Source of the DNA: Lingula anatina
Lineage: Eukaryota; Animalia; Brachiopoda
DNA length: 64,000 nt
Assembly (NCBI GenBank): GCA_051362555.1
Contig: CM120640.1
Location: 31,515,967 to 31,579,966, forward strand
Direction: 5' to 3'
In this document: in pieces, positions 7,793 to 64,000 of the stretch
Layout of the letters: every line of letters starts with the position of its first letter
Numbering within the stretch: position 1 is the stretch's first letter
Notes under the pieces: model-generated
Databases searched by the model: none
What the model was told of the DNA's origin: nothing
The model's input: only the letters and a program-made list of their open reading frames with translations
Translations under genes and position numbers: made by a program

Positions 7793-7835
<43 letters not shown>

Positions 7836-18221: not shown

Positions 18222-18640
18222 GTAACTGTGCGGTGTTTACCTTCATCCGGTGTCCATTACTGACGGTAAGTAATCATTGCCACCTTGTGCTTTGATGATA
18301 TTTCTCTCAGATATAGTATATCAAACCATGGAAGCATAACTGTCAGTTATTCTTCAAAGTTAAACAGACGTTTTTCTTAAAACAAGTACATAATGAACGC
18401 TTGATATTACATTCTAACTTACTGAACAAACATAAATGTCCAAACAGGCACAGTTGGTTTTACTTTATGCATGGTACCAGTATTCTATCTGTAGATGGAA
18501 TTTGAGCTGTCACTGCCACTGATGCAGGCAAGTTATTTTTTTTACAAATCAAAAGAAAGAAAAAGTGAAGTGAAAAGAATGCTGAATCGTTTTTTGTATG
18601 TTTTTCAGGATATTTTTGCAAAATCACATCACAGAAAAAT

Positions 18641-29625: not shown

Positions 29626-30060
29626 GTAACAGTGCGGTGTTTACCTTCATCCGGTGTCCATTACTGACGGTAAGTAATCATTGCCACCTTGTGTTTTGAT
29701 GATATTTCTTTCAGATATATCATATCAAACCATGGAAGCATAACTGTCAGTTATTTTTCCCTGCTCAAGTTAAAACAGATCTTCCTTTGTTAAAACAAGT
29801 GCAAAGTGAGCGACTGGTATTACATTCTAACTTCTTACTGAACAAACATAAATGTACATACGGGTACCGTTCTTTTTACTTTTTCTTTTTACTTTTTTAG
29901 AATTTGAGTAGTCACTGCCACTGATGCAGGCAAGTTTTGTTTTTCACAAAACAAAAGAAAGAGAAACTGAATTGATAAGAATGCTGAATCGTTTTTTGTA
30001 AAAGTGAAAATAAAGCTAAATTTCGTATGTTTTTTCAAGGTCTTCAAACCACAGAAAAAT

Positions 30061-35714: not shown

Positions 35715-38700
35715 TCAAGAAGAAGATAAACATTCAACATGTAGCAAGCGGTGGTTTTCCCCAGGTGTGGTAACGGCAAAATACATCAAATAATGATTCA
35801 CCAATCGTTCAAACGCAGGGGTATTTTCCTGGAAGTAACCCTCTGCAACGAACACCGATCCCAGTGCCGCAACCGCCCCAGCGACTAAAGGAGACGCCAT
35901 AGATGTGCCACTCTTTACTGCAGTGGAAGTGTCGGTTTTATTAGTTGCTGAGAGAATACGGTCTCCGGGGGCATATATATCTACACAACGGCCATAGTTG
36001 GAAAAATCCGCCCTGGAATCAGACGAGGTGGTTGCACCTACTGTAATTGCTTTGGGGGCACTGGATGGGGAACTGAGACAGGCGTCTTCATTATCGTTTC
36101 CTGCAGCGACGACGACAGGGATACCTTCATCAACCAAGGCTGCAACGGCGTCGTTCGACGCAGTGCTGTAGCCTCCGCCTAAGGACATATTCACCACAGA
36201 TGTGCGCTTTCTAGCACGCACCTGCTCAAGCACCCAGTACATTCCATTTAGAACGCCCTGGGAAGTACCGCTTCCGTTGCCATCTAATACCTTCACAGCG
36301 ATCAGGTGAACTCCTTTAGCAATTCCGTACTTTGAACAACCAACTGTTCCCGCGACATGAGTGCCGTGACCATGGTCGTCAATGGCGGCCGTTTCTGACG
36401 TGTCGGGAAAGCCAAGTGTCACTCTCCCTCCTGCAAAACACTCATGACTGGGTCTTATTCCAGTGTCAATAATATAGACATCTATTCCACTGCCGTTACC
36501 CCAGCTTAGCAGGCGATTGTCATCTCGGATTTTGTCAACTCTGTCCAAGCCCTGAAAAAAAAAGTAACGAAATATTATATATTACATAAATTCGAAATAA
36601 GCCGAATTTTTGCCGACAAAAGGTCCGGGAAAAGGTCTTTTAGGATATATATGTATATCCTAAAAGTGCGTATGCGTGGTCCACCAAGATTGTGACCTAT
36701 TTCACCGTTCACGTGTAGTTATTGCTTAGAAGAGGCAGAGCTTTATACCATGTAAGCCAAAATCAGGCTGAAAAACGACTCTACATAAAATCGGTGGTTA
36801 TAATATTATCATTTGTCCATTAATATTATTTGTCTTCAAAAATACTATGGTCATTATTCTGATGATTTCATACCGGTGGCTTTGGGGTGAAAGTACTATT
36901 TTCGGTTTCTTAATGTTCTTTACTACTTGAGCTTGTATTTAAAAAATCCAACGGAAAATAGATGTGCACGAGTACTATATTTATCACTTATGACTATAAA
37001 TTACACCCATTTCATCGATTTACATATTGAATGATAAATTGAATTTTTGTGAAAAAAAAAACCCTTTATGTAATATTTATCATGTGCGACACGCATCTAT
37101 TAGTTAATTTGATATCAATTATAGATTAATTTACAGTTGACATTTTGACTTTTTGGTAATTAAATGTCATTTATATCAATCGGTATGACGTTCATCATTC
37201 CCTATATGGAAAGTGAAAGGTCAATACGGGGATCCAGAAGGCGAAAAAAGTTACCATGTAGTCAATCGTGCCTCTGCATGAGCTGTGAATACGTGTATGT
37301 GAACAGTGGATGCATCCCAGATAGTGATGAGAATGAAAATGATGATGTTTTGTAAATGTTGTAATGATTTAAAATAAAATATTTGATCATATTTTGCACG
37401 GTGTCATTGAATATTTACTACTTGTATACACGACATGAATAAAAGTGATATGAATATCTCAAACATTTTGAAACTGAAAGAGGCTACAAAACTCACCAGT
37501 ATTTAAGACTGCTTCCGTGCTAAGGATGGTTAAAATCCTTTCTGAGCCTTTTAAGTTTTGAAGGAGGCATGATGCAGGTGTGTAAATCGAGGGGAAAGCG
37601 CCCAACTTGTAAGAATACGAGAGGTATATTCTGCTTTAAACTAAATAAATAAAGTAAAAAGCAAGCTACAAATTTTTAAACAAAACACACCATCTTTCTT
37701 AGTTGTACTCACCCACAGTCCATATAAGTCAAGTACGTTGTATTCATGACAGCTACTAAAATCGTCATTAACTTTCACTATAACATCTTGCTCGATTTCT
37801 TCAATAATATCTGTGTTCTTTCTTACTTCTTCCACCTCGCTACAAAAGATGGAAAGTGCATTACAAAAATGAAATTTAACACATTCGTCGTCTTTTTATT
37901 TTGGACCTTAGCTGCACTGTCTTTACGGTATAACTCCTGTTAGTATAACTCCTTGTACAGGATAACTCCTGTTAGGGTGAAAAGAAGCCCTAGCTTGTTC
38001 ATGTGATTATACTCCCTAGATTTAGAAGAATTCGCACCACAAACGTTGTATGGGTTTTGCACGTAGACTTACCTCTCTGTAAGCTTCACCATTACTATGT
38101 CTGTTTCACTGTTAAATTTAATGTGGTCGCCTTTGTACCGCGGAATCGTCTCCAGAAACCGTGCAACTAAGGAGATAAAAATAGTAAAGCTAGCTGGTAA
38201 GCAAATAAAATACCGAGGTAATTTTGAAAAAAAATTGCAAAATTGCATCAGCGCCCACTCGTACTCTCAATGGGAGCGAGGGTTCTATTTGATGACACGA
38301 AGAAAATAAATGGAACTTATTTGTATCGTTACAAAAATCGTTTTAAAAGTTGAAAGACAACGATTGTGTCATTTATCTTCCTTGTCTTCTGTTTAAAAAA
38401 AGACAATAATTATAAATACTCACATAGGAAGAGAACAGAGTTAAAATACTTCTTCTGTTCCAAGTCACTCTTCATATCGAGATATTATTATTATTATTAT
38501 TAGCGTACATAGAAATAGGCCCCAATCGACCCCACTGTTAAAATAAAAAATCATACCTTGTTTATCGGTTAGTCCTTCCTTCAATCGAATAACGTACTGG
38601 TCGCGTACCCCATACCCCTTATTTGCCTTTATAAGGCGCGCTAGAATGTAAAATGTACACAGAATCACAGTAATCTTCGTGCAGTCTTGCCTTAACTTGC

Positions 38701-43600: not shown

Positions 43601-46600
43601 TTTCCACTTGTTAAAATTATGTTGCTGTTGTGCATTTTAAAGAATTAAAATGCGAACACTATTACAGTAAACACTGAAACCACACCTTTATAACAATTTT
43701 CGACTGCAAAACGCCGTGCTGTAGCACAACCGTGTTGATACTTATTAAAGTTTCTTTTGATGCTAACCATAAGGTCCCGCACACTGGAAGGACCAATCAG
43801 GATATGCGGCCTGCGGAGGGAGCCACCAGTCTCCAATTCACATCAAAACAGAAGACGTGAAAGAAGACAAGGATTTAGATAACATAGCTTTTTCGGGATA
43901 CGATCAAACTAACGGGCTATGGACGCTTAAAAACAACGGGCACTCAGGTAACAAAGATCACTTTGTTTGTAAACAGTTATCACGCACAGTTAAAAAATAT
44001 CAAATTATAAATAAAATTTAATTGTCCCTAGTTGTATGCTACTTTTTGAATGTTAGTTCACTTGAATTCTGTAGCTTTTACAAATAAGTAAAGGATTGGT
44101 TAAACGAATAAATACATGGGTAGAAATACCCCCCCCCCCGTACTTCCATAGACTCTAAAATCATTACTCCATGTAGCAACGCACACTGTATTATGGAGTT
44201 GGAAGTAATTTGCATACATTGGAATATTGCAGTTCCTCTTTTCCCTAAACGTTTCAAAATTTTAGTACAGTGATATTTTGATTATCATATCACTGCAAAA
44301 CATAGGGTCTGGTGCTCAACCAGTAGTGTATACCCGTTTCGGTGATATAATAATAATTTGTAGTGTGGGGGCGTTGACCTACAGGCCTACGTACACGTAT
44401 ACATGTATTTTACGCGGTACATGTACAACATTGGTCAAAAAGGTTGTCCCACCCCCATTTCCATGTATTTGTATTTACAAATGATCACCTTACAGGTGTA
44501 TATTGTTATAAACGGTGCTTTTTATTCTAGATACCATGTCTAATATGATTAATGGTTAAAAAAATACAAAATAGTGGTGTGAATATGCACATTTTATACC
44601 ATTTAGTCAAATTTATAACAAATTTGAAACGATATCATTTGATATTGCTCTAAGTAACACTGTCTGAAACTATATGTTAGCATTTGGTTGGCTATTGTGA
44701 CACAAATTGACTTCAAATGAATCTTTAATACAGCGTGTCTAGTGCGCTTTGGTACTCCACGCTGTATGCTTATTACCAATAAACTCTCACTGTTTCCATT
44801 CTTGGTGGTGGGTTATTTATGTGCTATGGGCAACAAAAACCTTTTTATGAGTAGTAGCTGGTGTGATGCACTTAGCCTGACATCCCTTAGTTCTGTAAAC
44901 TATTTTATTTGGTACAATTCAGACCAAAATTATCAAAGTGTAACTCCAGATTGTAGGCGTTTAAATGCCCAAAATACAAAATATGCTGTGGAAAATAATG
45001 CTGTTGAATAAATGTGAAACGTTATAGGGCCTAAAGATAAAGGCTATTCACACTGAATTTAATATAAAGGTGATGTACATGTTATGTTTGAAATTCATTT
45101 CAGTTCAAGTGGAAATAGGCCCCGGAAACTATTCCATTAGCAGCAAGGCTTTTAGCAAGCCGTACAAACTGGTGCAGTTCCACATGCATTGGGGGAATTC
45201 GAGTAGCAAAGGTTCTGAACACTTCATCGACGGGGAACAGTATCCACTAGAGGTGTGTACATACCATACATATATATAAGATTTAGTCTGCCCTCACCAA
45301 CAATCTCCATAATTGTTTATGGTGTACACCATATAAACACTACCCTGTGATATATCTACGAAACCTTCTCGGAGTATACGGTACCTACTGTATGCTCAAT
45401 AGTGCTTAGCCTTTTTTAATGTTCGCTTTCTGCTTGACAGATGCACTTTGTTCATTACTCGACGAAGTATGCCGACTTCAACACGGCGCAAAATAAATCT
45501 GACGGCCTGGCTGTTTTAGGACTACTTTTTTCAGTAAGTATGGGTTACTTTCACTATGCAGTGTTTAGCGAAAAATTAAGGCATTTGGTTATTGAAATAA
45601 ACATGTGTATAAAAAAAATTCAGTTGATATGTAAGACGTCTATTTTACCACGGTTTTCATTCTCAACAGTAAAAATACGATTGGCGCCGCAGCTTTTAAG
45701 GCGAAAAAAAAAACTGCGATGCATGAGTTTAGGTAATTACCAGTTGTCCGGAACCGCGCAAAATTTAGCTATGAAACAAATTTAGAAATAGGCTCGAAAT
45801 ACGGACACCGTTAAATACTTTTAGTTCGGATAACGCGTTAATATTACCTTCCAAGTTCGTGGTCAAAATAGTTACGTGTAAATCGCTATGAGGAAATCCA
45901 ACTCTGACAACAATAACCAGTTTCAACCATTTAATGTTCACTCGTCGCTTGCTTTGGTACATTCTGAAGATATGTTGAAAATTACACCCTTTAGTATCTA
46001 ACCAAGACAATGGCTCCATGAACTTCCTTATCAATGGCTTCTAAATCAGAATAGTCAACAAGCCTACTCTGCCTCTTTAGATTTTACATAACGTATTATA
46101 AAGGGTTACAGACTACAGCAAAAAGTTATTACGTGAAGTTACCGAAATTGTCTGTGAATTATTTGATGTCTCCGGCACAGTATAAATTGTTCGACAACCA
46201 CATGATGTAGCCAGCTAAACTATAGGAATTCATTATTGCTACAATTGCAGTAGGTGAGATTGCAAGTGTAATTGCGCCAGTTCTGATTGCAGGTGCAGTC
46301 TGAAGACAACGCGAATCTAAAACCTATTTTGGATCTTCTTCCAAACATCACTGAATCAGGTGTGTAGAGTATTACTTTGTAATCGCAGGTTACTAAATCA
46401 GTTATGAACAAATGCAATTATACAAAGATCGAGGTGTATATTTTTTACTTGCTCATATACAGGCCTACCAACATCTGGTATCATTTACCGGTAGACAGGG
46501 TAATAATAATAATATTTATTTAAAGTCTTAAATTCGGACTTTAGAACGTAAATATATAATATATAGGCCTATATAAGGCTCGATAAAGAAAAGGAGGTTT

Positions 46601-47299: not shown

Positions 47300-49297
47300 T
47301 GTGCGTCACAGCACTTTTTTGTTGAGGCTAGGTGACTAGTTATGCAAACACGACGTAAGCCGTTATATTATAAAATGGCCGAGGTGGCAAGCGCATCTGC
47401 TTATCAACTGAGAGTGTTATTTACACATCGATACCTGCAAAATGAGGACTATTAATTTGCTGTTGAAAATGCTCTCCTGAATTGACTAATTTTATATTTA
47501 ACAACTTGATGATACAATTGGAAAGGGTAAGAAAAGGATAATGTGCTGAAAACAAAAATAAATATCGAAAAGATTTTTGTTGGACTCAGTCTTATGACTC
47601 TAATTCTTTTTCTTTTTCACACAAACACGACCTTTCTTTTATGATAATGTATACGGATATGTTGGACTAAGAATAAATACGAAGTAATATTGCGCTGGGT
47701 GTTTCTCTACATAAAGACATACACCCTGTATTACGATGTGAGATCTTCAAGTTACACTAGAAATTCGTATTGTAACTATAAATAACATAACAGTTCTTGA
47801 TTTACTACGTTCTGTCTTGTAAGTGCTTGGGTAATTCCAAAATGTTTAGATGAAATCAATGGAATGTGACCCTTCTGTATATTAACTGACACAATTCCCT
47901 ACTACATTGAATGTGTTTGCTACTACTTTGTATGAGTGGGTTAAAAACCAGCGTCTTCTGCATATATTTCTTTTGTGAGCCAATTTGCATTGGAAGTCCA
48001 TTCCATGTGAAATGTATGCATTAAATGACTGTTAGCATGCACACAGGTAACCTTCATGCCCCGTTATTTAGGACTGATATGTTTTCATGTAAAATGGAAG
48101 CCATGGAACGAAATACAGATGACTTAAAGCGTCCAAATTAAGATTACTTGTTGAAGCGGTCGTCACTGCAGGATAAATAGTAGTTCAACAACAGTAAGTA
48201 GGTATGCTGATGTTATTGGAAATAACACGTTCTTACATTGTTGCAACATGACTCTCTAAAACTGTAAAGACTCATGACTCTCTAAAGACTCTCATAAACT
48301 CTCTAATACTTGTTTATAACGTTTTAGCTGCGGGAATTGAAATATATTAATTGACATTGGACGTAAGATCGTCAATGTAAAATGTGCGTGAATTTTAATT
48401 TAAAAAAAATGAGCCACTGCATTTTAAAATTCCACAAAAATCCACATACCTGAGGCAAGAGTTAAGATAATAAGCTTGTTTTACTGACTTAAGCATTTTT
48501 AAGACTACCTATTTGGATTTTTCAATATTAGCAACGTGTATATTTGATATAATTTTCAGTGTATTCTTCAATCAATCAATCAATCAGTCAATGATATCGA
48601 CCGCAGTTAATCATCAACATCATCATGATGAGATTGATTTCTTGGCTGATTTACCCCACGAGCGCCAATCTCTCGTGAAGTGTTAGTGGACGGCCGTTGG
48701 CTCTATCTAACGAGCTCATCCGCCCGAAGAGAGATGGATTTTATTTTTCGTTTCATTAGAGTGTCCAGCCTACCTCCAAACCTTCCTCCTTCCATCTTCC
48801 TTTCTTAGAATATATAAACAAGTCATAAAAACTGGAAACAAAGTGCTACTTCACCCTGCTTGTTGCTGCAGATAAAACAGTAGAAAATGGTTTACTATGT
48901 GACCTATGATAACTGAATGATTATAATGTTCTTATTCATCCACTTAGTACCACCCTTAACGCAGGTCAATGTAACTAGAACTCTTATATATTGGAAACCC
49001 ATCCACTTTTTCACTTATTCTAAAGCAAATGATGATTAAATCGCACACGAATTTATTGCAAAAGTGTTTGTGCTTATTACTAAATAAATTGTGAGGCATA
49101 TCTCCCTAAGTCCAGCAATGTCGTAACCTGTGATGTGATTATTGTCTTATTGGCGGGATTTTCATTTTATCGAATCTTTCTATTTTATTTTGTCCGACCA
49201 ACGATTCACTGCGTCAAATTGGGGACAAAAGAAATGCTTCAAACATTCACTCACCTAAGCCAACTGAACAGGAAGAGAGTGACCTTGAGAATAAATT

Positions 49298-49464
49298 CAG
49301 GCCCGTAGCCAGGGGGGTTCGGGGGGTTCGAAAGAACCGCCCCTTTTGTCAGGAAAAGGTCCATTTTGGGTAAAATTTGATCTAGGTACACATAAGTTGC
49401 ATTGTAAAAGGTCCACTTTTTCAGAAAAAGAACCCCCCTTTTGAATTTGCTGGCTGCGGGCCTG
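49298..49464. mobile_element. Family B non-autonomous transposon, copy 2 (inverted relative to 16116-16269)
   Basis: CAGGCCCGTAGCCAG ... CTGGCTGCGGGCCTG; internal sequence is the reverse complement of copy 1; TSD not clean. Confidence 0.75.
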
Positions 49465-50490
49465 ATACTCATAAGGCATTTTGAGTCGGAAATCAAAAGC
49501 ATCTCTTATGTGACTCCTTTAAATGATAAAAAATAAAATTTGCGAAATGATTGCATAATAAATAACATCAAAAATGCTTCTGTGGCGTAACGGAATTATG
49601 TATAATATCAAATGCACATAAAATTCATAGGAAACACACTGGTGCTCAAAAATTGCATCATTAATGTTTCTTCATTTAAAGATTTTTTCTTTTGCACATC
49701 TTTTATTATTCAAAGTAACAATTCTTATCGTTAACTGAAATCTTTAAGTGGCGGGTTTAATAAAATATACAATTACTGCCCTGAAAAGCAATATTATCCT
49801 GTAATGTTGAAATTTCACTAAGCTGCGATACTGAAATATAACAAACCTCTCTTGCCTCTGCGGAAAAAAATTGCTTGTATCTCTTAAATGAGACCAACAA
49901 TTAGTAGCTGTTTTCCATTTGGAGTTGAATGATCAATCAAGTCGAATTGATTTCTTATGCTAGTAACAAACGCGACATGGCAACTTACTCAGGAAAGGTT
50001 AACTTTTATAGGCGCAGTTATCAGGGGCATAAAATTCGACACGCAACAAAAGTTTTCGAATTAAACAGCCATAAATATCTCTCATCACCTTTAACTGCCA
50101 ACGGTTTATAGGACACATGCTATTCTAATTAGACATTTTAAAGTCGAATCTATTATAAAGAAAAGAATGATAATGAAACAGATATATTAAAAGAATATTA
50201 TTCAGTTACCTTACTTCTTGACGTTTACTATATATGTATGTCGCAGGCCAAATTGAAATCTAAGCAGATTAAAAATCAGGTTAAAATCCACAGTCACAGA
50301 CAATTTAAAATTATAAATAGATTAATCACATTCCCAGTAAAGCCATTTTTGCTATTACAATTTATGTTAATCAAAGATAGAATATTAGAAAGAATTTGTT
50401 TTTGTTGGTGTTTGAAAAGTGATTTTCACTCACTTTATAAAAGTTAACATCAAGTATTTGAGTGCTTTTACTTAACAGACGGAATTCAGC

Positions 50491-53400
50491 ATGAGAACAA
50501 ACGTCTTCAAAATTATCATTCTATGCGGCTCTTTGATGCTCATCAAAGAAGCCTTGGGGATTGCTACAGAGGCTTGTGACACCACCTTTACGACAGCCGC
50601 CATTGGGATACAAAACGCCAGCGTCATTCTCACCGGCATGATGGCCTTGTACAAACCTGGAGAAGGAGGTTACGGTTGCAGCGCAGTACCTGACGGTAAA
50701 TAGAGAATTGACCATTTCACGAAAGACATGGAACAAATTATAAATTTTGATTTCGCCTTCGCTGCCTTTTCTTTGTCAAATTAATCTTATTCTATAAGTC
50801 CGCGCTTTTTGATCAATTGCCATCTCTATCAGTGTCTCACCAGTCACACTGCGTGATATCCAACTTCAACGGGTTTTATAAAGACCATGGTCAATCCATA
50901 AATACTATAAAATTTACCAAAAGCATTATAAAATCCTTACAGAAGAGTCGAGAGAAAACCGTGGTTTTAGTCTTGGGGTGGGGAGGGTGGGAGTAGTCGG
51001 TGTCCTATTCAGCCAAATAGGGCTTTGGTCAAGCTTTTGGTAAATCGTCTCATATCTATATTGCAGCTTAATGTTGGAATATACATGTAGATATGAAACG
51101 ATTAACCAAAATCTTAAGCACAACTGTAACCATAATGCCTTAAATGTTGTTATTCGACCAGTCCGATGGACGAAGGCCATTGAAGCAATGCGATGGTCCA
51201 TTGAACTTCTAAACAGAGACAGCGGCGTGTTAAATGGAAGAAGACTCACCGATACTTATATACCTGGCGTGAAATTTGGTAGGGAAACATGGCATTCGCC
51301 AAACCAAAAATCTATGCTTATGAAAAAAATAAAAAATATTAAATCTTATTGTCCCTTTGTGAATTTCTATAAATCCACTGTCTTTTTCAATTAAAAATAA
51401 TTTAATAATTTAACTTTTAACTGTATACATGTATTTAAGGTTTCCTACCAAACATCAATCACCATGCCACAGGTACTTTCTATTCAAATTGTAAATATTA
51501 TTATAGAAACAATATGTAGGGTTGTACTTTGAATATCCAGGTCTGCAGATCACAGCCACGTGTGGCCACCCAGAGACTGCTTTCACTGCCCTGAAGCAGA
51601 CATTCCCTGCCCTGGTGACCACGGAGACCCAGTGTGCGCCTAACGGGACCAGTGTGCTGCCAGGTAGATATGGAGTATACCTCAGAGAAAAGCACAAGTT
51701 GCATGACCTATTATTATTGAACGTTTTAAGCTCACGGATTCTGGTACCTTTTCCTGACCAAAGCTGGTTTCGACCCTTTTACGTAACGTTCTTCCTTTTT
51801 TGCAGGGGGGGGGGGGGGGGGGCGAAAAATCCTGTTACACTTAAATGTGCATAGGGATTATCTTTGACAGGTATATTAGGGTTCACAGAGCGGCGAAATT
51901 ATGATAATGAACTCTATCATAACGAGGTTCCAGTTGTGAACATCGGAATGGGGCCATTGTTAACAACGCCAGGCGAATCTGTACTACATGTGGCAGCGTC
52001 TTACGAGACCCGGAGTAAGGTACGTATTTTGAGGATGGCCAAGCTACCATTTTTTTAAAAAGTAATTTGTTTAAATAATCGGTATAGTATGTACCTGTTG
52101 TGCTGACTTGAACAAAATGCTGATAACAGCTTCAAACTGTCCCGAAAATTTAGAAAACAATTACTATTGACAAAAATATCGGGCTCTCATGGAATAAGTC
52201 CTTCATCTTTGATCGACAATAACTGGATATGCAAGAGTAAAAACTTCAATTAAAACATTAATTTTGTTTCTCATTTAGGTAGTATCAGAAGTGTTAAAGC
52301 AACTCAACTGGAAATACATTGCAGTACTGTACTCCAATGATGCTACTGGGAGAACCAGGGTGGATATCATGAGAGACATGCTAAGAAGGTATGATCTGTG
52401 CGCCACTCTCACAGAAACTGTAGATCTCGGTCTATCAGATCAAGATGGTGATGTTGTCATCAAAAAACTTATCTCCTTCGGAATTACTGGTGTCCTTTAC
52501 GTTGGATCACAAGACCCTCTTTCCGTTTTATTCAATGCAGCAAATCGGGCAGCCAGAGAGAATGCTAAATTCAATTTTCAGTGGATTCTGGACGATATTA
52601 TTGATGAAATATCTGCTCTAAGTAATATGCCTTACACCAGGGGCGTTTTGTATATCCGCGATGCTGTTCAGGACATTTATGAGTTTAAAGACCACTGGGC
52701 AGAGCTTGATCCCACACGACCACCAGCTGAAAACCCTTTCTTTGCTGAACAATACATGACAGAGGAAACTTGCAGACTGCCTTCAGCATTTCATCAGCCA
52801 TATGTTTCTTATGTCAGCTGTCCAACCGTGACCAAAGAGGAAAGGCTAAGGCGGTATGCTAAGGATCTTATGCGAGGTTTTGTTAACTTGGCTGTGGATA
52901 CCGTGTATACTTATGCAAAGGCATTAAAAGAAGCACAATCAACAAAGTGCCAGACAAGGGGCATGTGCCAAGACTTTATGCGAATGACCCACAAAGAATT
53001 TGCCAATCGGTTCTTAAAGACTGTAAATTTTACATACACGATGAACGAAAGAATACAGTCTCTAGAAAACAGAAAAGTGGCTTTTGATAAAGGATATCTA
53101 TCGAATCCAGAAGTCGATGTTATAAATATTCAAGTTGATAAGCACGTCAAGGTAATGGTATAGACAACGTACAATTTTTTATGACATAAGATTTATAACA
53201 TTATTTTTATTACAAACAAAATTCATTTTTTTAATTGAACGGTACAAGTAGAGGCATCCGACAGAGAAATATTTAATGGTTTACGCAAAGTACCTTACAA
53301 ATGCAGACAGTAATATTCAACATAATGCTGCACTTGACATCTTTTAATATCCGTTTCAAAGATTAGCGTAACTGTCTGTATTTTAATTCTTTTTTCTCTT

Positions 53401-56400
53401 CCTTGTACACATCTAGGTCGGAGACTACAGAGCGGGTTTACTGTCTTTGAATACATCTCTAATTCGTATGTATGACGCAAGACGCACTGGGAGACTTGCT
53501 GAAGTTCCAAAATCACTTTGTCAAGTCTCACACTGCAATTGCATGTCGAATTTTAAATCAAGTGATAATGTTTATAGTCAACAGGGAGATTTAATTATTG
53601 GCGGAGTTTTCTCAACTCGACAAAAAGGTTCTACACTGCATACATGCAGAAGCATTGATTCAGTCCAAATGCAGTTAGTTGAAGCATTCAAATATGCCGT
53701 GTTGAAGGTAAACAGAGGAGAAGCATCCGTAAGATTGCCACCAGGTATAAGACTCGGTACCACTATATATGACGATTGCGAGGATCCTTATATTGCAAAG
53801 GCGTCACAGTCGGCGTCTAAATCTTTGGACGCAATTGTGGCCGTCTCACCTGATTTGCCTCATATGACGGTACACGACACACTAGATGGGTTTAACATTC
53901 CATTAGTTTCGGCAGATCCCTCTTTGTCACTGCCAAGAGAAGTTGAAATCCAGATACTTCTTCACATCCTTATGCACAATGATTGGAGATTCGTTCAGGT
54001 GGTGTACTCCGATGACTCCTATGGCAATGCAAGCAGTCGAGAATTTAAAGCAGAAGCGTTAAAGAATGGGATTTGTGTTGTACAGTTGGTGCGTTTTAAG
54101 AACGCAAATGTTGCTGAAGCAGCTAGCCTGTTAGACAAATATCCGAACACTAAAGTTGTAATTATACTTCTTTCACGACCTAACATTGTTCGTATGTTCT
54201 TATACAGCATGCGGCTCCGTCGTGGTGAATACATATTGATAGGCAACAGTGTGCTTGGCAACTCCAATACCGCCGTCGGGGGTGAAGATATAGTATCGAC
54301 AGGGACGCTGGCAGTCAACGTCCAATACCCGAACAACACCGATTTCTTTTCACATTTAAACCAATTGACTGCAAAAAGTGGTTCCACCCTGTTGTTCCAA
54401 AAATGGTACGAGGCACTCTTCAACTGTACGTTAGACACCAAAGTTAATGTTGCATTTCAAAAGTGTATCCAACCTTACTCGACGCCTATCACATCTGCCA
54501 GAGGATTCAAACTGGTCCCCCAACATCAGCTTGTTATTGAAACAGTATATTCTGTCGCTGAAGGGTTGGAAAGAACATTGCGGCGTTATTGTCCTGGGAA
54601 CATTGACAGAATATGTCCTGCATTTAGAAACGCCCCTGACAAAAACCTTGTGGTTGAACGAGAAATAAAAGAAGTATTCCAGAGAAAAGCCATTCATGCA
54701 ACTTTTAAAATCATTCAATTTAAGGGCGAGAATGAAGGATATCAAGAGGTAGGAAATTTTTTGACAAATACAACAAATAACTGAATCATAGCCCTAGAGA
54801 AAACACATTAATAAAGGTTAACATGTTTTCTCAACCAAAAACAAATTAGGCCTACATAAAAAGCGGAATGTTTACTTTAAATACAGTGAACGAGTTGCAG
54901 TGATTGTGTGTTGCTAGTTACATTAATTTATGGTGTTTTAAAGTGTCGCCATTACAATGTTTTTATCCCTTCAGGTCGGGCAATTTAACGAAGCTACAAA
55001 GAAATTACACTTAGATGATGTCAGATTGTCTGGAATATCCTTGTCTAGTTGTCCTGGTGCCTGCTACGTGTGCAACTATGTGTACCAACACCAAGACATA
55101 GTCATAGTTCCAGGAGACATCTTGATCGCCGGGATATTTAATATTCACGACAAGGGGTCTTCTCCATTCACTTGTGGAGATATTCGCAACGGTCCAGCTA
55201 ACATACAGGGCGCCAAAGCTGTCCAATATGCAATAGAGACCATAGCAAACGGCACGGCTCCTGTGAGTTTAAAGGGCGTGAAACTTGGGGCTGTGATATT
55301 GGATGGATGTTCTAGTGCAGCGAGAGCAGGAAACCTTATGTCAAGTGCATATACGGGGTTGCTAGGATTGAAGCAATTCAGAGACATTAAAGTTTGGATG
55401 GTTGAAGGTGCAGATATGCTGGAAGAAGCTTTGCCCACTTTGAAGGTAATGGGGTTACCTGTTATAACAACAACGACGACGGACAGTCAACTGAACCAGG
55501 AGCTTCAATTCTATCCTAAGATTTATCGTTCAGTGCCCACGTCTGGCCATCTTGTTTCTGGTATTTTGCAGTTTCTCAAAGAAATGGGCTGGAACCGCGT
55601 GCAGGTGATCCATTCAACGGACACCTATGGGAAAAATATGGCTGATATATTTGGAAGGTTGGCGGAAAGTGCAGGCGTTTGTGTTCAGCAAACCCATTTT
55701 ATTAGCAACAAAGAAGAATCTGAAAAACTTTTATCGGTCTTATTATCTTCGTATGATGCTTCGGTTGTTGTCCTCTTTACTAGTATTGAAGATATCTCGG
55801 AAGGCATTCTGACGGCTAAGCAAAAATTGACTAATGACCCTCTTCGGCTGCTTATCTTTCTTGATGACTTCTCTGCCACTTCACGAATTTCACCAAGCTT
55901 ACTTGAAGGGACGGTATTGTTTCAGATAAAAGAACTCGATCTTGACAATTTCTCAGCTTACCTCAAAACACAGAAATTTAATGGTACCCCCAAAAATCCA
56001 TGGTGGGACGAATATTATGCGAGACTTTTCAAATGCAATCTCCCTGGACAGCACAAATACAATATGTCCTGTCAAAACGATTCTTCCTTGAGAGTGACAG
56101 ATGCTCCTGATTATGTACATCAGCCATTCACATGGGGTACCATTCAGGCAGTGTACGCATTTGCACAGGCACTGGATTCTTTGCTAAATGAACGTTGTGG
56201 AGCAGATAACGACGGACTTTGTGGCGCTTTCACTACTGATCACAATATCACAGCGGCGCTTGCTGCCAAATTAAATGGTGTTTCAATGGATGACGGGTTT
56301 GGTAAAGTCTTCAAATTTACCTCAGAAAATGGAACGGTAAATTACATGGTGCAGCGATATAGCAATGATGTTATTGAACAGGTACTTTTACCGAAACTCT

Positions 56401-59400
56401 TATTTATTTTGATATAGTATAAATTTTAATTACATAATGTGAAATGTATATCTGCTCTTGATTCATGCCATCAACCCCATAATAGACAAATTTATATCTT
56501 TTTTTCCAGATTGGTACATATCGAATATTCCAGCGCTCCCTTACTCTTACCAACCCGACCCTTAAGGACTATTATGGTTCAGTTAGTGCTAGGTGTGATG
56601 GACTGTGCTCACAAACTTGTTTCGCAAAAATGAAAACCGCTGCAAAAATAACTAAAGATAAACAAGGGTTCGTTGACGGCGATGTAATTTTTGCTGGTGT
56701 GTTGTAGTTTTATTCTTATCTTCATGATTAAGTTATATAAGCAATGGTTATAAGCAGTATTTTGATTCATTTATAAATAATTTGCTGCATATGACTTCTT
56801 GCGAACACTGAAACCAAAGGTTGGCCTAAGTGCGTAAGTCACTGTATTATCGTGCTTTTTTATATAGCGCTAACTGATTCATATGCCGTTATTGTTTCCT
56901 ACACAACTTAAATACACCAATTAAAAGGTTTATCTCGATTTTTAAGGTATCTTTGACGTACACCAAAAGAGCTTACAACCCTTAGCCTGCGGCCCTTTGA
57001 GAGATCAAAATGGGTTCCAGCTAACAGAAGCATTTCTTTATGCTCTGAACCTTGTAAACACTCACAGGGGACAATTTCAAGATATATTGCGTGGGGTCAA
57101 ACTGGGTGGCATTTTATTAGATTCCTGCGAAAGTCCTGCACGGGCCGCGACGCTCGTCGATAATATCCAAAGCGGAAGAGTGAGTTTAAGCAATTCTACT
57201 GTTTCAAAATTCATTGCCGCTTACATTGCCGGCCCAACCAGTGCAAGCAGTCGAACAGTGGCAGAGGTTTTGAAACCGTATGGTGTACCTCTTCTGAGCT
57301 ACGCGGCAACCAGCACCGATCTGAAGAATCAGTTGAAATACCCCACCTTTCTCCGCACTGTTCCCAGTGATGGCAAACAGGCAAGGGCAATTCTGGCAGT
57401 GTTGAAAAGGTTCAACATAGAGTACGTGCAACTGGTAACTTCATCAGGACCCTACGGTGATCCAATGGCGAAGGACTTGCTGGAGCTTGCAGGAGAAAGC
57501 GGCGTCTGCATCGCCCAACATCTTGTTCTCCGGGTAACTAAAACAGTGTCGGTTAAAGTTGCTGCCAATAGCACTTTACATGCTCTCTTGAAGAAACCTC
57601 CACGAGTTGCAGTACTGGCGTTAGAACGGGAACATGTGCGTGAATTATTACTCGCCTTCAATAGTAGTACCAATGCTAAAAAACAAAAAATTCTGTTTAT
57701 TGGGACTGATACATGGCAGAGGGATCTTTCCGTTGTTGCCGGTCTTGAAGATATAGCAGAGGGAGCGCTTACTCTTGGCCTTGAAACTATAGACGTTCAG
57801 GATTACGACACTTCATTCTTCTTAAAACATCCAAATAACTACTTCTCTAACCCCTGGTTCGAGGAATATTACCAATGGCTTCACCAATGTTCATTGCAAG
57901 GAGATGGGGTGTTTAACAAACTGTGTCCATTGCAAACATCACAAATACCGCCAACCAAGTACAAACAGGACAAACTTGTCTTTTACACCATTGCAGCCGT
58001 CCATGCCATGGCACATGGTCTTCATTCGGTCCTGTTGGATACCTGTGGAGCACAGTACTATGGGCTTTGCAGCAACTTCACAAGATCGGGGAATAAATAT
58101 CAACAGCTTCTGAAGTCTACAAAACTTGCCAACTTCACGGATATCACCGGACGTCCCTTCGAGTTCAAAGATGGAGAAAGCGTCTGTGGGTATAACTTGT
58201 TCAGATTTGGTCGAGAAGCGCTTGGAGGATATCTTTACAGCACGGTAGGAATTTGATTTTGTTGTTGTATTTAAATTATGAAAATAACAAGTTTATTTTA
58301 AATCATAACAACCTTGAGGTAGAAGTTGTGCAGATATATACTTTCAAATAAATAAAAAACTATTTATATGAAGATCAAATTAAGCTAAAAAAAAAAATAC
58401 AGACTTGAAAGAGTTGTATTATTAAATGGGTTTAAATTTTGGTTTTTGGCACATTGAAGTTGGATTGGTTGTTATATGTTTACCTTCCGTAAGATCTGGT
58501 GGGTAACATAATTCAGCTTATCCCTGTCGTTCCTAATTTTTGAAAAAGGACTTGCATAGTTGTATGCGCCGGTTTTCTAAAGTGACAAGGTTTGCTTTTA
58601 CCCGGGCATCAACCTAAGGTGAATCAGAAAATATAATTTATATTGCCTTAGATTGGATATATTATATTATATTATATTATATTATATTATATTATATTAT
58701 ATTGCACTGACCACTGGTTAACCCAGGGTGCCACAAAAGACAAGCAAATTCAACAACAGAGCGAATTAACCTTGATACAACTGCGCAAGAACTGATGAGG
58801 ACGGTTTAGCACTTTTTTTTTAAAGTTTGCAAAGATAATGGAACCGTGTACATATGTAGTCAACATGTTCATACCTTTAAAGGTTGTTAGTAACCAGTAA
58901 GCCCAAATATTTGAAATTATATTCATGTACTTTGCAGGCACGCAACAACCGTATAAAATATAATGAAACGCTACCAAGTCCATACAGGGATTTTGAGAAG
59001 TCATCGTTTCTTTTTTTTTCTTTTTTTAAATAAGCGATGATAACTTTGATACACATACCATTACGAGCCCAGACGATATTTTCTGTGTGCCTTTCAAACT
59101 GTTGACAGAAACACGCGACAACATCATAAAATGTCCTGAAACACTGCTTAGTTCACACAGGTATTTTGAGAAGTCATCGTTTCATTTTTTTCTTTTTTTT
59201 TCAGATAGGGGATTATAACTATGAAACACTAACCATTACCAGCCCAGACGACAATTTCTATGTGCCTTCTTCAAACTGTTCACACAAACACTCTTGTAGA
59301 GAGTGCCCAACCCTGGGGCCCAAGAAAACAAGAATAATGATATCGGACAAACAGACAATAAAGGAGATTTCAAAAATGTATGTGGTTGCCGTTATGGACG

Positions 59401-62400
59401 TGCACCAACGTGGTCGAAACCAATTTGAATGCGGACCTCTCAATGTGCAAAGTTATTACCAGCTGTATGCTTTACAGATTGCGCTAAGGAAGGAAAATCC
59501 CGACAGCCTTGGATTGTTGGTAATAGATGCTTGCTCGCATAGCATTCGTGCAGTAAACGATATTTATAGTTTTCAGGGTGGCTGCGGCATCATCGGTGAG
59601 ACAGCTCCGATCGATCTGAAAGTCAGGCCCGAGATGACTATGGCCTACGTCATCATGGGACCAGACAACGTTGATGCTGCCAGGGCTTTTTTAACTTCGC
59701 AAGAAATCCCTATAGTTATACCCTCGGTTGCTCCTGCTGCCCCTAATAAATATGTGTTCAGCACCATGCCTTCTGATTTTAACAAAGCACAATTGCTTAT
59801 TTCCATTTTACAATCATTAGAATGGACCCACGTTATGGTGGTCAGTTCTAGCAGTGATGGCAGTCAGGCGGCAACCACTGCCTTTTTCAACGCAGTCAAA
59901 AATAAGACCAATATTTGTATTGGGAAACAGATCATTATGGGAGAAAATGCCACTGAGGACGACGCGCGAGATTTTGTTAATAATCTTAACAGTACAAGTG
60001 ATGCTCGGGTCGTGGTATATTTTACTGACGTTAAGCATACAGAGCTCCTTTGGTCTGGATCAGACTTATCTCAATTAGTGTGGATTGGCTTTTCCCATGG
60101 TGAAAACGAGGCAAAGGAAAACAGCGATCGCGTTTCAGGATCCATTACAATTTCACCACAAACATTAGACATGCGAGATATCTCAAATACCCTAGTGGGA
60201 TCACGTCCAGATATCACAAATGATATACCCCCAGACTGGTTTGAAGAGTTTTGGCAATTAATAAATGGCTGCAAAAATTCAAGTAGCAAGTTTGTACAAA
60301 AACAATTCACTCGCGAATGTGGAGACAGTGAGCAGATTTCATCAAATGAAATACGCATGGACCCCTCTGTAAGCCACACCTTTTTAGCAGGCAGTATCTT
60401 GCGAGAGGCGGCTTTGACATCTGAATGTATTCCTGGAGACCGCAATTGCTTTACAAAGGCTCTTCATACAACTGTCGTGCAAGTACCTGATGCGACAACG
60501 AAGTTTTCCTTTAATAATACTTTAGGATTCGAAATCCGAAATTTCCAAAGCAAGTCCAAAGTGCATGTGAAGGTAGGTACATATTGGAAGGAATAAATCG
60601 CAAAATCGGTATGTTAGCCTACATTTAAAAATCGATGATAGTATATTATGAAGAGACCAACCCATAAAACAGCAGAGTTGACAACTTTGAAACTGAGTTA
60701 TAAGGTACTGAAAAGATTGGAAAATACGTGAAAAGATAGATCAACAGTAAGAGCTATGCCACTCAAAAAAACTGTCATGACAGTTAAGTAACTGATTAGT
60801 TTATTAATGGGCATGCCTTGGCGGAGATCTGCGCTCTCTGAAAGCTTTTTTAGTTTTTTTTTTTGTTTTAGATTGGGTCATGGGATACAGGCGCGATGCA
60901 CCTTAGCATTGATGTACGTAAATACCAAGGGCCAATTGCCAAAGGCGGATCGAACTGTACTTCGGAGAACTGCCCTTGTTTAAAGAACCCAGTGGTCACT
61001 TTTAATCAGTCCGTTACCGTTGCAACTCCTTCACAAAATGAATACATTACAACCTTACCGGCGGTAGATTCCCGCTTCGTCAGTGCTTTAGGAATCATTG
61101 TTTCAATGTTCATAGGAATCGGTGTCCTCCTGACATTGGTGCTCTTCGTGGTCTTCTGTGTTGCTTATCCGAACTACAAAAACATCGGGACCACGTTACT
61201 TGGGTACTACGGACTGTTTGGAGTATTAGTCATATTTCTTCACACATTGGCCTTCATATATTATCCATCATCTATCGTGTGTGGCTTCAGGCGATTCTTA
61301 CTGGGTTATTCTTATGCCATTTGTTTCTCAGCATTTCTTGTCAAAGTTTTAGATATATGGAGAATCGGAAAGTATGGCGACGCAAAATACAAACGAGTGA
61401 CAAGTCCTTGCAGCTTATTCTTTGTTGCAATTGGTTTGACACTTGTCCAAGGCATCATCGTGACCATGTGGCTGGTTCAAGATCCTCCGAAATCGGGAGA
61501 GATAATATATGACGGCGGTAGGTGGCACTGGTGTACCAGTACTGACTCTCACAACGTTGACCTAGTGATGTCGTGCATCTACGTCATGGCTCTAATACTC
61601 ATGACCGCCATTTTTGGGGTTGCCACGTGGAAGCTTGAAGTAAACAACAGAGAATCGCGCTGGATTTGCATAGCAGCCTTTCTCACCATCGGATGTTGGG
61701 TAATATGGACCGTCGTTTCCACTCTGGCCGAGCGCAAGTACAGAGACGGTGCGATCGCTATCTGCAACCTTGTGAATGGATATGTCATTCTGGCCACTGT
61801 CTACTTTAGAAAGCTGTGGTTGCTGGCCATGCACAAGAAGGAAAAGAGAGAACTGGCTGAAGAACACAGATCCGTGAGTATGAACGGAAGCGCCGAAGGT
61901 GAGATGTCAAAATGCCATGTATTTTATTTACATTTAAATAAAGTATACTATAAATAGATACCATAGAAATATATTCCATCTGCAATTGCATGGAGTCTAA
62001 GGATGATCTAAAATATCAGTAGCATGGTATAATAACACTGTCATTGTTTGGGAATTATTTAATATTGATCTGATTTAGAATTCATTGTATTGTAATGATA
62101 AAACTGCCTCCAGAGGAGTGACCATGCTGTGGCCTGTCTCTATCGTATTCTAGTTCTTTCATACAGATGGGTTAGTTTTTTTAACAAGACCTCCTCTCTC
62201 ATTCTGTTGAAACTAGTTTACTTTTTCACTGAAGAAAAGGTAAGCCAACACATCCTGTAAAAATTTGAGAATATTTCATGTGATTATCTAGGTGAGCCAA
62301 TAGAAATGTATTCCACCTATCCAACGACGACGCGAACAGGTGAAGTGTTCGCGCCGGGATCCACCACTCGCTCGTTGGATGACCCTGCGTATGTGTATGC

Positions 62401-62425
62401 TGTCAAACCTGCCAGACGTATGTAA
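50491..62425 (+). CDS. Class C (mGluR-like) GPCR with five tandem Venus-flytrap (ANF-receptor) domains and 7TM, ~2739 aa
   Basis: Exons 50491-50695, 51162-51278, 51541-51663, 51871-52019, 52279-53151, 53417-54748, 54975-56381, 56510-56696, 56947-58244, 59205-60572, 60872-61898, 62292-62425 total 8220 nt, in frame, all GT-AG. There is one signal peptide. VFT motifs recur five times (GD-I/L-IxGxF..H/R, LGxxIxDxC, WxxVxVxxS, NPWF-like..C). The 7TM has CGFRRFLLG...LVKVLDIWRI, WLVQDPP and NNRESRWI. Confidence 0.88.
58657..58703. repeat. (ATATT)n microsatellite
   Basis: Direct reading. Confidence 0.9.
58989..59115 (+). repeat. Decayed tandem duplicate of the acceptor and first ~85 nt of the VFT5 exon
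   Basis: ATTTTGAGAAGTCATCGTTTC(T)n...AGCCCAGACGA...TGTGCCTT..CAAACTGTT.ACA.AAACAC repeats at 59163-59291; the upstream copy has TAAA in place of the CAG acceptor. Confidence 0.75.
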
Positions 62426-64000
62426 TGTACAATCCAGTAAAGTTAAAAAACTTGAATCTTAGTATTCATACGTCTTTCATGGGGGTTTTATAAGCAAGGA
62501 AGACAAATAGGTGGAAAATTAGAAGGACTAGAGGGACCTTCAGGCATCTTAATTATTTTAGATGAGAAAACAATATTTATAAAGAGCGCTTATCTTTGTT
62601 TCACTTCTAGACTAGTTGCTCGCCACTTAATTTCTCTTTATAATTGCATATTATGGAAAACACACATGCACTGAAGTATACTATTTAATTCTCGTGCTTT
62701 TAATTATGGCGAAAAAAACACGACAGAATCAATGAACAACAACAACGATTGAATGAAGACGTTCTTTTCATTTATAAAATGATGTAAATACATTTATAAT
62801 GATTAACATGGTAAATAAGTAAATATATGTGTAACAATGTTGATATTTAATGGAAATATACAACTTTTTCTTTCTACTGGCAGTACTATGGCTGGTTTAC
62901 ACTTCATGCTCTTGGGGCACTCTTGTTTACAACTTCAACCAATAAAGGATTAAATGTTTAATTAACGTGGATTACAACTCATTCTATTATATGTATACTA
63001 CATACTATACTTATGACTATGGAAATAACCACTTTTGGCAATTTAAGGATTCAAAATTGCTTACTATAGACCGTTCGGAGGAATATCATCATTAGTGCAG
63101 CACTCTAAAAACTTTTTCCCTCGTACTAAAAGTTCTTGAAATGCTTTCATATAACCTTTTGCTTGGCTTGTAATGTCTTTTCTAACAAAATTGCACAAAG
63201 CGGCCTGTAAGACGAATCTCGCAAAGATGATTTTAAATTACAACTACATGAGGTTGCAGTCATGAGTTTTTAAACTTCGTTGTGAACTCCAGGAATTCCG
63301 TCGTTCTTTTGCAGCAATTCCTACTCCTTAAGCACTCCTTAAGTTTTACACGCCATAACAATTGAATACATAACTTTGTTAGCTTTTTAAATGAAAAAAA
63401 GATTAGTTGGGATTCCACTTAGACTAAAGACCCTAACTTACATACTTTCCACTGTACATTTTCTTTATACAACGTGAATAAATAAGTTAAATATTTACGA
63501 TATGAAGTAACCCATCAGGTTATTTACCTAGTTCACAATATGTTGTGTAATTTGACTCAAGACACTTAAATGTTAACTTTAAATATAAAATATATAAGTA
63601 CTTGTTAAATTATAATCTTCAAGTAAGAATGTTGAAATAACATTAAAGAAACAGAATTTTAAAGCTGTTTTGACAATAGTGTACTGAAGCGTGAGAAACT
63701 TGATACTAAGTAAGTCAACCTGGAATTGCATTAAACTGAAAGAAAAGATTTCGAAAAGAGTCTTTTAGGTGAAACCTTACCCATATCATTTCTAAGATAA
63801 ACTTATGTGTGACTTGAAACGTAAAGGTGTTTTTTACGTTTGAAAGGTTCTTCTGCAATTTCTGAGCGGTGGTAAAACGTGACTGTCACATTCCTTTGGA
63901 AAAGTTCTTAACGTAAACTTTCTTTCGGAGCCTCCCTTATATTTTCTTAATTTAAAATAAAACACGAGGAATACTGTCAGATCTAGGTATGGCACTTGTT

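Follow-up and report, generated by a model that had tools for sequence, protein, structure and literature searches.

The window of 64,000 nucleotides analyzed here, from Lingula anatina, contains one gene whose product carries five Venus-flytrap domains (VFTs) atop a single class C seven-transmembrane domain (7TM), as supported by the gene model, domain searches and colinear homologues. Judged from its sequence, the gene is a member of an old, unnamed bilaterian family of multi-VFT class C receptors and belongs to the five-VFT lophotrochozoan branch, with which it shares five position-specific VFTs, three-Cys linkers and the 7TM clade. We give a probability of roughly 0.45 to the reading that the product acts as a single five-VFT class C receptor, which would likely form a disulfide-linked dimer, would bind a ligand predicted to resemble an L-amino acid but not to be glutamate, and would signal via G proteins.

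The gene model comprises 12 exons with 8,220 nt coding for 2,739 aa and the stop, contains no internal stop codons, and all 11 introns (128-960 bp) follow the GT-AG rule (Table 1). The initial annotation had proposed twelve exons in one frame (~2739 aa), short inter-module introns and a single signal peptide, and had argued that these are not separate genes; this was borne out, with a signal-peptide-like N-terminus. Hydropathy analysis revealed a hydrophobic stretch at the N-terminus, a single weak peak further inside the protein (residues 1185-1204, 1.66) and seven C-terminal helices, and no new signal peptides were apparent in the in-frame stretches (0-39 codons) upstream of internal exons. 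RNA reads confirmed the joint of exons 10 and 11, i.e., between VFT5 and 7TM (three reads in X7 and two in X8, one letter differing), and that of exons 11 and 12 (two reads in X7, four in X9 and four in X8). The remaining nine of the 11 joints had no reads in the eight RNA runs, in which the depth over exons 1-9 was mostly <2x; because no Lingula reads span these upstream joints, the evidence for the splices between VFTs comes from the reading frame, splice signals and colinear homologues. Apparent RNA joints of the opposite strand were set aside, as they arise from poly-T/poly-G runs in introns. The fact that no Lingula read connects two VFT modules would also be compatible with a model that fuses neighboring genes or exons never present on one transcript, as would the RefSeq copy of this gene, a partial model that comes from a contig of 3,256 bases and holds exons 10-11 only (98% identity), and the occurrence of fused models of tandem NCD3G-type genes among the matches (e.g., P0021 and P0207). 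However, the short introns in one frame without new signal peptides, the 31 colinear proteins, several of them on intron-poor Logan contigs, and the finding that domain identity follows position make such a fusion very improbable.

In the Pfam analysis, all five module exons exceeded the curated cut-off for ANF_receptor (E 5e-14 to 3.5e-45), as did exon 11 that for 7tm_3 (127 bits, cut-off 33.5, E 1e-36), which is the combination of five VFTs and one 7TM anticipated in the initial annotation; none of the six exons scanned matched NCD3G at E<=0.1, again as anticipated, and exon 11 had no match to GBR2_CC. The modules share 19-29% pairwise identity (7/10 pairs aligning at E<1e-3). The four three-Cys linkers described beforehand (CQVSHCNC, CPGACYVC, CDGLCSQTC, and CSHKHSCREC) are present, and a fifth motif additionally follows VFT5. 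Class C membership is evident from 7tm_3, the five N-terminal ANF_receptor domains, the TM3-ECL2 cysteines and the K3.50/E6.35 lock, the latter two being motifs with known roles in class C GPCRs.

Table 1. Exons, domains and cysteine motifs of the five-VFT gene, with positions in the window.
Feature	Position	Strand	Remarks
Exon 1	50491-50695	+	start, signal-peptide-like N-terminus, VFT1 beginning
Start codon and signal-peptide-like N-terminus, aa 1-23	50491..50559	+	hydropathy peak aa 4-26
VFT1, aa 24 to about 500	50560..53151	+	exons 1-5; amino-acid core 1/5; VFT1 clade 32/32
Exon 2	51162-51278	+	part of VFT1
Exon 3	51541-51663	+	part of VFT1; contains C139 codon
C139, loop cysteine at place of mGluR inter-subunit cysteine	51633..51635	+	in 32/32 VFT1; role presumed from position
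Exon 4	51871-52019	+	part of VFT1
Exon 5	52279-53151	+	VFT1; ANF_receptor E 3e-18 (Pfam)
Exon 6	53417-54748	+	VFT1 tail, linker 1, VFT2; ANF_receptor E 6e-17 (Pfam)
Linker 1, C524/C529/C531	53519..53542	+	three Cys in 31/31 proteins
VFT2	exon 6, tail in exon 7	+	lobe 1 shortened; core 1/5
Exon 7	54975-56381	+	VFT2 tail, linker 2, VFT3; ANF_receptor E 3e-30 (Pfam)
Linker 2, C959/C963/C966	55050-55073	+	exon 7
VFT3	exon 7, tail in exon 8	+	core 3/5
Exon 8	56510-56696	+	VFT3 tail, linker 3, VFT4 start
Linker 3, C1431/C1435/C1439	56594-56620	+	exon 8
VFT4	exons 8-10, mainly 56947..58244	+	whole amino-acid core
Exon 9	56947-58244	+	VFT4; ANF_receptor E 3.5e-45 (Pfam)
Exon 10	59205-60572	+	VFT4 tail, linker 4, VFT5; ANF_receptor E 5e-14 (Pfam)
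Linker 4, C1922/C1928/C1931	59277-59306	+	exon 10
VFT5	exon 10	+	tail in exon 11; core 1/5; confident VFT fold in AlphaFold2
C2024, VFT5 loop cysteine	59583-59585	+	loop Cys in 32/32 VFT5
Exon 11	60872-61898	+	VFT5 tail, three-Cys motif 5, low-confidence stalk, 7TM; 7tm_3 E 1e-36
Three-Cys motif 5 after VFT5, C2382/C2387/C2389	60956-60979	+	exon 11
Class C 7TM	about 61070-61822	+	7tm_3; best PDB match mGlu3 E 2.6e-21
Exon 12	62292-62425	+	cytoplasmic tail and stop

Besides this model, 31 five-VFT proteins were found in a brachiopod, nemerteans and molluscs. The full-length Lingula paralogue LOC106163963 aligns colinearly (32% over 2,830 columns), as do 30 further proteins of 2,730-3,045 aa, seven of which come from Logan contigs 8.6-11.1 kb in length; several of these leave almost no room for introns and are, by inference, spliced transcripts. 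Five ANF_receptor domains with 7tm_3 and without NCD3G occur in nemerteans, bivalves, gastropods, cephalopods and the second Lingula copy. In the per-domain phylogeny suggested in the initial annotation, the VFTs group by position (32/32 for each of VFT1-5, support 0.81-1.0). Relatives with 2-5 VFTs are present in arthropods, enoplean nematodes and invertebrate deuterostomes; examples from the wider family are Tubulanus LOC141898800, Octopus LOC106868777, Saccoglossus LOC100374272, Centruroides LOC111630827 and Branchiostoma LOC118426443. The earlier surmise that similar unannotated models may exist in other invertebrates was thus right and understated. Full-length members are labeled "uncharacterized" or carry automatic mGluR-type names, and no description of a multi-VFT class C family was found in the openly searchable literature, in accordance with the earlier statement that no functional characterization was known. 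The ESM Atlas returned generic class C clusters only, and word-index searches with exon 9 and the 7TM, restricted by length windows, returned conventional receptors or the Lingula partial model only. Seven proteins with NCD3G or internal 7TM pieces (P0021, P0024, P0027, P0031, P0042, P0046, and P0207) were interpreted as models that merge tandem ordinary genes and were excluded from the family counts. A related two-VFT single-pass family has no 7TM. Drosophila CG32447, a possible lead, is named in the literature only as an orphan.

A new feature of the family is that every VFT carries the cysteine that in mGluRs connects the VFT to the cysteine-rich domain (mGlu3-C240-type; 160/160 modules of 32 proteins) and is then followed by a three-Cys mini-linker (exactly three Cys in 154/155 linkers). 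The loop cysteine, which links the subunits of mGluRs, is present in 32/32 VFT1 and 32/32 VFT5 but in 0/96 VFT2-4, and in 12/13 conventional mGluR/CaSR-like reference domains. Moreover, VFT1 and VFT5 exceed VFT2-4 in the hydrophobicity of helix-B surface positions. These patterns suggest that the receptors of this family likely pair, with ties at the first and last trap. A chain in which VFT1 folds back to pair with VFT5, within the chain or across the dimer, forming a loop instead of a tip-and-base ladder, would likewise account for a spare cysteine in exactly these two domains and for the loose inter-domain orientation in the structure model (pTM 0.56). We consider this improbable, because four-VFT arthropod and deuterostome forms possess the loop cysteine in the first domain only, and VFT1-VFT1 pairing therefore appears to be the older state.

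From the observed architecture, its conservation and the cysteine and pocket-residue patterns, we infer the following mechanism for a paired receptor. Each repeat would consist of a VFT and a three-Cys remnant of the mGluR cysteine-rich domain, and since this remnant is pinned to lobe 2 by the C240-type cysteine, closure of one trap may pull on the next. Loop cysteines would tie the two chains at the tip (VFT1) and base (VFT5), with VFT2-4 as unpaired arms between these ties. In this copy, the ligand would close VFT4 and the change would travel via linker 4 to the VFT5 pair, which, its pocket lost, would act as a lever on the two 7TMs, while in most relatives several competent traps on one chain could enable ligands to be summed or their coincidence to be detected. 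A bolder and rather doubtful generalization is that strings of traps coupled by disulfide-pinned mini-linkers, in a dimer clasped at both ends, combine up to five (ten per dimer) amino-acid-type signals and pass these from trap to trap to the membrane, single pockets being switched on or off per species. To our knowledge, a serial trap-to-trap allosteric mechanism is not known for any GPCR.

The amino-acid-binding core comprises five positions, of which 1, 1, 3, 5 and 1 are kept in VFT1-5 of this copy, although in divergent modules the assignment of pocket residues is alignment-dependent. VFT4 is thus the sole trap with the full core (S1563, T1586, D1606, Y1634, and D1719), and its L1490 and L1808 stand where the glutamate-selective Arg and Lys (mGlu3 R68 and K389) are located; R68-type and K389-type residues were each found in only 2/160 modules across the family. 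Its best PDB match is mGlu3 (2e4u, E 3.6e-49), with weaker matches to T1R (E 3e-21) and CaSR (E 1e-15) as compared to E 4e-49 for mGlu3. At least four of the five core positions are present in VFT4 of 29/32 proteins, 29/32 retain the core in at least two traps, and Tubulanus P0014 possesses all 25 core positions. This conservation suggests that the family likely senses amino-acid-like molecules. The integration of multiple ligands proposed in the initial annotation fits the lophotrochozoan family, in which several pockets are kept, but not this copy with VFT4 only. The counts in LOC106163963 (2, 4, 5, 4 and 5 of 5), i.e., a core in four traps versus 1, 1, 3, 5 and 1 here, raise the possibility of an obligate heterodimer analogous to GABA-B1/B2 or T1R pairs, in which the paralogue might provide most ligand sites and this copy structure, one extra site or the G-protein contact. 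The loop cysteines of VFT1 and VFT5 are present in both Lingula copies, nemerteans also have two copies, and molluscs have two old clades, all of which would be in line with such pairing. Contrarily, the quick 7TM tree places the two Lingula copies as sisters (93 SH-aLRT), apart from the mollusc pairs, so that the pairs arose separately and not as one ancient heterodimer. We regard the heterodimer as a minority reading, roughly half as plausible as the single receptor.

Conservation is highest in the 7TM (46% mean identity). In 31/31 proteins, the TM3 and ECL2 cysteines, K3.50 and E/D6.35 are each present, the phenylalanine in ICL3 on which G-protein coupling of mGlu1 depends is missing in 31/31 (H14, N8, Y4, C3, S2), and the place of the proline of the mGluR TM7 motif is taken by Arg in 30/31. 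AlphaFold2 models of VFT4 and VFT5 of the paralogue and of VFT5-7TM reached mean pLDDT of 88 and 79, respectively, the latter with seven helices, and their top Foldseek matches were mGlu2/5/3; with pTM of 0.56 and 0.58 for these two-domain models, no rigid lever is apparent in the predictions. The stretch between VFT5 and TM1 varies in length, spanning 48-76 aa in sampled proteins, and was modeled with low confidence (residues 496-515 of P0033 had pLDDT <50). The motif differences in ICL3 and TM7, the degeneration of 4/5 pockets here and nearly all in arthropods, 28 N-glycosylation sequons and the related single-pass family could also indicate that the ectodomain serves chiefly as a spacer, for adhesion or to bear force, in contact with another cell or matrix, with vestigial or modulatory pockets and a 7TM that may not couple to G proteins, for which BOSS-like class C proteins are a precedent. 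The core amounts to 0-3 of 5 positions in 35/35 domains counted in nine arthropod four-VFT members, which implies that the ectodomain can persist without it. Nevertheless, two or more pockets are retained in 29/32 lophotrochozoan proteins, spanning >500 Myr, the ionic-lock pair and ECL2 disulfide are invariant, and no adhesion domains were detected by the Pfam scan; we find this reading, which covers the adhesion and mechanical sensing suggested in the initial annotation, unlikely, slightly more so than the heterodimer.

The family bears on the question of class C allostery, namely how a trap off the membrane domain drives that domain, and its cysteine and pocket patterns offer direct mutational tests. 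Members are found in snail vectors (Biomphalaria, Bulinus), farmed bivalves and Trichinella.

Among known receptors, mGluRs (mGlu3, mGlu2, and mGlu7; PDB 2e4u, 8tqb, and 7mts) are the top structural and sequence matches for VFT4 and the 7TM (59 PDB matches for the latter). Common to both are the VFT cysteines, the VFT-to-CRD cysteine, the loop cysteine, the alpha-amino-acid core, the TM3-ECL2 cysteines and K3.50/E6.35. Unlike mGluRs, with one VFT and a nine-cysteine NCD3G, this gene has five VFTs per chain and three-Cys remnants, NCD3G having no match here or in the five-VFT homologues scanned; the distal-carboxylate Arg/Lys of mGluR classes I-III are both Leu in VFT4, the pre-TM1 stalk is variable, and the ICL3 Phe and TM7 Pro are missing. 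In a quick, unrooted 7TM tree, built without GABA-B, GPRC5 or GPR158 as outgroup and omitting Romanomermis and one Amphiura row (short matches), a branch with 99 SH-aLRT separates 13/13 mGluR/CaSR-like rows from all 59 multi-VFT rows. CaSR, GPRC6A, T1R, V2R and class IV mGluR (mXR) likewise contact the amino-acid backbone but are not selective for glutamate, as described for the latter in PMC6307864. Each of these has one VFT and a full NCD3G, unlike this gene. GABA-B, in which a VFT that binds no ligand works alongside one that does, is without the mGluR cysteine set; the PDB matches listed are mGluR, T1R, CaSR and GPRC5D, with no GABA-B chains among the 60 of 97 listed for VFT4 or the 59 for the 7TM. 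As here, the GABA-B VFT connects to the 7TM without NCD3G, according to PMC12716839. The unnamed multi-VFT proteins share tandem ANF_receptor domains and 7tm_3 without NCD3G, with 2 to 5 VFTs by lineage, the pockets of this copy being more degenerate than those of most. Venus kinase receptors are invertebrate receptors that reuse the class C-type VFT (PMC4026697, PMC3703292); they differ in combining a single VFT with one transmembrane helix and a tyrosine kinase. A survey of GPCR evolution from 2025 distinguishes three ectodomain layouts among the glutamate-family receptors of animals and takes these to indicate architectural constraint (PMC12716839), to which the multi-VFT family adds a further layout, kept in molluscs, brachiopods, nemerteans, arthropods, enoplean nematodes and invertebrate deuterostomes.

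Twelve exons, joined by coordinate in the 49.5-64 kb part of the window that was read, encode one frame of 8,220 nt and 2,739 aa with a single terminal stop, and all 11 introns (128-960 bp) are bounded by GT-AG. In the six exons scanned, Pfam recognized ANF_receptor in each of the five Venus-flytrap (VFT) modules, 7tm_3 in exon 11 and NCD3G in none, which is in accordance with the expectation of the initial annotation (weak or no NCD3G); the coordinates, the count of five VFTs and the four three-cysteine linkers it had proposed proved correct, and a fifth three-cysteine motif was found after VFT5. Every VFT is interrupted close to its end, at an equivalent position, by a phase-0 intron (after residues 489, 933, 1402, 1897 and 2353), which fits repeated duplication of one unit. 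As judged by eye, intron 9 additionally contains a degenerate duplicate of the start of exon 10 (its acceptor and the initial ~80 bases of the exon) shortly before the genuine one, which is a trace of local duplication.

The proof that five VFTs and one 7TM share a transcript is indirect, coming from homologous sequences, and strong. When the five modules were searched as a profile against 1.84 billion representatives, the top eight matches were proteins of 2,730-2,872 aa with five matching stretches each, in all of which Pfam recovered five ANF_receptor domains and one 7tm_3 without NCD3G. Seven homologues lie on Logan contigs that are 8,573-11,087 bases long; in one, P0013, 8,406 coding bases occupy a 9,030-base contig with almost no room for introns, and we infer that such homologues are spliced transcripts. 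Direct proof in Lingula is partial: the eight RNA runs aligned to the window showed low, 3'-biased expression with scattered reads in all five module regions, and joint reads were limited to the VFT5-to-7TM joint (3 in run X7, 2 in X8) and the last exon joint (2 in X7, 4 in X9, 4 in X8), with none of the nine upstream joints among those listed from these low-depth runs and zero reads in run X6. The earlier claim of a single gene is thus borne out by the five-VFT homologues, and a fused gene model, for which the silent upstream joints might speak, is highly improbable. Two flanking stretches, heavily covered by loose-ended reads that are 90-99% alike, are dispersed repeats and were rejected as parts of the gene.

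Elsewhere in the window, the first two of three subtilase exons have near-identical upstream signal-peptide exons and are a recent tandem duplication.

Features located in the window
Feature	Position	Strand	Basis
Five-VFT receptor gene	50491-62425	+	exon joining, Pfam
Decayed exon-10 copy (intron 9)	58990-59115		by eye
Dispersed repeat	49297-49467		RNA reads
Dispersed repeat	62550-63500		RNA reads
Subtilase (Peptidase_S8) catalytic exon	21077-21946	+	E about 1e-39
Subtilase (Peptidase_S8) catalytic exon	33167-34033	+	E about 1e-39
Subtilase (Peptidase_S8) catalytic exon	35715-36581	-	E about 1e-39
Signal-peptide exon, first subtilase copy	18569-19018
Signal-peptide exon, second subtilase copy	29971-30471
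Fragments presumably of at least two Cys-loop genes of the ligand-binding type (acetylcholine-receptor or AChBP-like)	2190-8386	+	by eye
Exon presumably resembling alpha-carbonic anhydrase	45438-45785	+	by eye

Exons 10-11 were 97.9% identical to XP_023931719.1, a partial L. anatina model whose contig spans 3,256 bases, and this assigns the window to Lingula; no full-length model of this copy was among the search matches. A second Lingula gene, LOC106163963 (2,826 aa), aligned end to end at 32%. The 7TMs of the two copies were sisters in a quick IQ-TREE run on 72 rows, with two rows dropped; the tree contained no GABA-B or GPRC5 rows and is hence unrooted. Named five-VFT members belong to nemerteans, bivalves, gastropods and cephalopods, and five VFTs were also found in Trichinella and Romanomermis; four-VFT forms occur in Saccoglossus, a crinoid, scorpions, a mite, crayfish and a cricket, three-VFT forms in sea urchins and amphioxus, and two-VFT forms in amphioxus. 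In a FastTree of 248 VFT domains, those of the 32 proteins with five VFTs (this receptor, its paralogue and 30 homologues) sorted by position, 32/32 per module (support for VFT1-5: 0.81, 1.0, 1.0, 1.0 and 0.94), and the five-domain layout therefore predates the brachiopod/nemertean/mollusc split. In arthropod and nematode forms the first domain fell with VFT1, the last domains, except that of the cricket, formed the sister group of VFT5 (0.998), and the middle domains clustered separately; the outermost two traps therefore predate those between them. The five-VFT receptor is real and conserved.

The alignment of VFT4 with rat mGlu3 (2e4u) served as the anchor for residue positions, which carry mGlu3 numbers. 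The C240-type lobe-2 cysteine, by which mGluRs tether the VFT to their cysteine-rich domain, was present in 160/160 modules, and 154 of 155 linkers held exactly three cysteines, an odd count that would fit one bond to this cysteine and one internal bond. The loop that follows helix B, where mGluRs and CaSR have their inter-subunit bond, carried a cysteine in 32/32 VFT1, 32/32 VFT5 and 0/96 VFT2-4, and helix-B surface positions were more hydrophobic in VFT1 and VFT5. The cysteine was also found in 12/13 reference domains of conventional mGluR/CaSR-like receptors. Among other multi-VFT 7TM proteins, 11 of the 14 first domains that span the helix-B loop had it, as did one inner domain. A closed ectodomain in which VFT1 pairs with VFT5, the two traps carrying this cysteine, is improbable.

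The alpha-amino-acid core (five positions per trap) scored 1, 1, 3, 5 and 1 in VFT1-5 of this copy and 2, 4, 5, 4 and 5 in the paralogue; a heterodimer of these two differently equipped chains is conceivable and unlikely. A VFT4 core of at least 4/5 was kept in 29/32 five-VFT proteins, two or more traps reached at least 4/5 in 29/32, and Tubulanus P0014 had all 25 positions. Of the two residues selective for glutamate, Arg and Lys were each found in 2/160 modules. In arthropod members the core was mostly gone; a spacer, adhesion or force role of the ectodomain, for which such loss speaks and against which the cores kept in two or more traps of most five-VFT proteins speak, is slightly less likely still than the heterodimer. 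A related two-VFT family, namely P0059 (Lingula LOC106158345), P0066, P0068 (Solemya), P0069, P0073, P0091, P0092, P0114 and P0147, lacks a 7TM and combines a small cysteine linker with a single transmembrane helix and a long tail in which Pfam finds no domain; the full core was present in 7/8 domains counted, in the domain tree the first VFT groups next to VFT1 and the second next to VFT2-4, and these proteins are possibly undescribed single-pass amino-acid receptors or co-receptors.

We propose, at a probability of about 0.45, that two disulfide-linked chains would be clasped at VFT1 and VFT5, that a predicted amino-acid-like ligand would close VFT4 in this copy, and that the change would be passed on by the pinned linker to the two paired VFT5 domains and then to the 7TMs, with putative output via a G protein. 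The arthropod pocket loss and the variable stalk count against this clasped-dimer relay. AlphaFold2 of P0033, the RefSeq model of exons 10-11, gave a confident VFT and seven helices (pTM 0.58) with low confidence in the stalk (residues 496-515), and the paralogue's VFT4-VFT5 segment was modelled as two complete traps (mean pLDDT 88, pTM 0.56); the latter pTM leaves their relative orientation unfixed, which may reflect flexibility or the shallow alignment of 33 rows.

Multi-VFT class C receptors were not found described, also under six family locus numbers, in the openly searchable full-text literature; as far as searched, the family is undescribed, and GPCR surveys of, e.g., hemichordates or sea urchins may already mention it. 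Database names of members are all "uncharacterized", "hypothetical" or automatic mGluR-type. The comparison covered PMC9138782, PMC12716839, PMC11682238, PMC6307864, PMC6267866, PMC2246102, PMC8177520 and PMC1192796; the animal layouts listed in PMC12716839 are ANF+NCD3G, ANF alone and Cache+EGF. This window adds a brachiopod member known to RefSeq only in part, and patterns of cysteines and pocket residues that depend on trap position and open the mechanism to testing. Foldseek matched the P0033 model best to mGlu2, mGlu5 and mGlu3, and the TM3 and ECL2 cysteines, K3.50 and E/D6.35 were kept in 31/31 7TMs. By contrast, the ICL3 Phe of mGluRs was absent in 31/31 and their TM7 Pro replaced by Arg in 30/31, which also counts against the proposed relay, and the 13 mGluR/CaSR-like rows formed one side of a 99-supported branch in the unrooted 7TM tree; the five-VFT receptor is not an mGluR.
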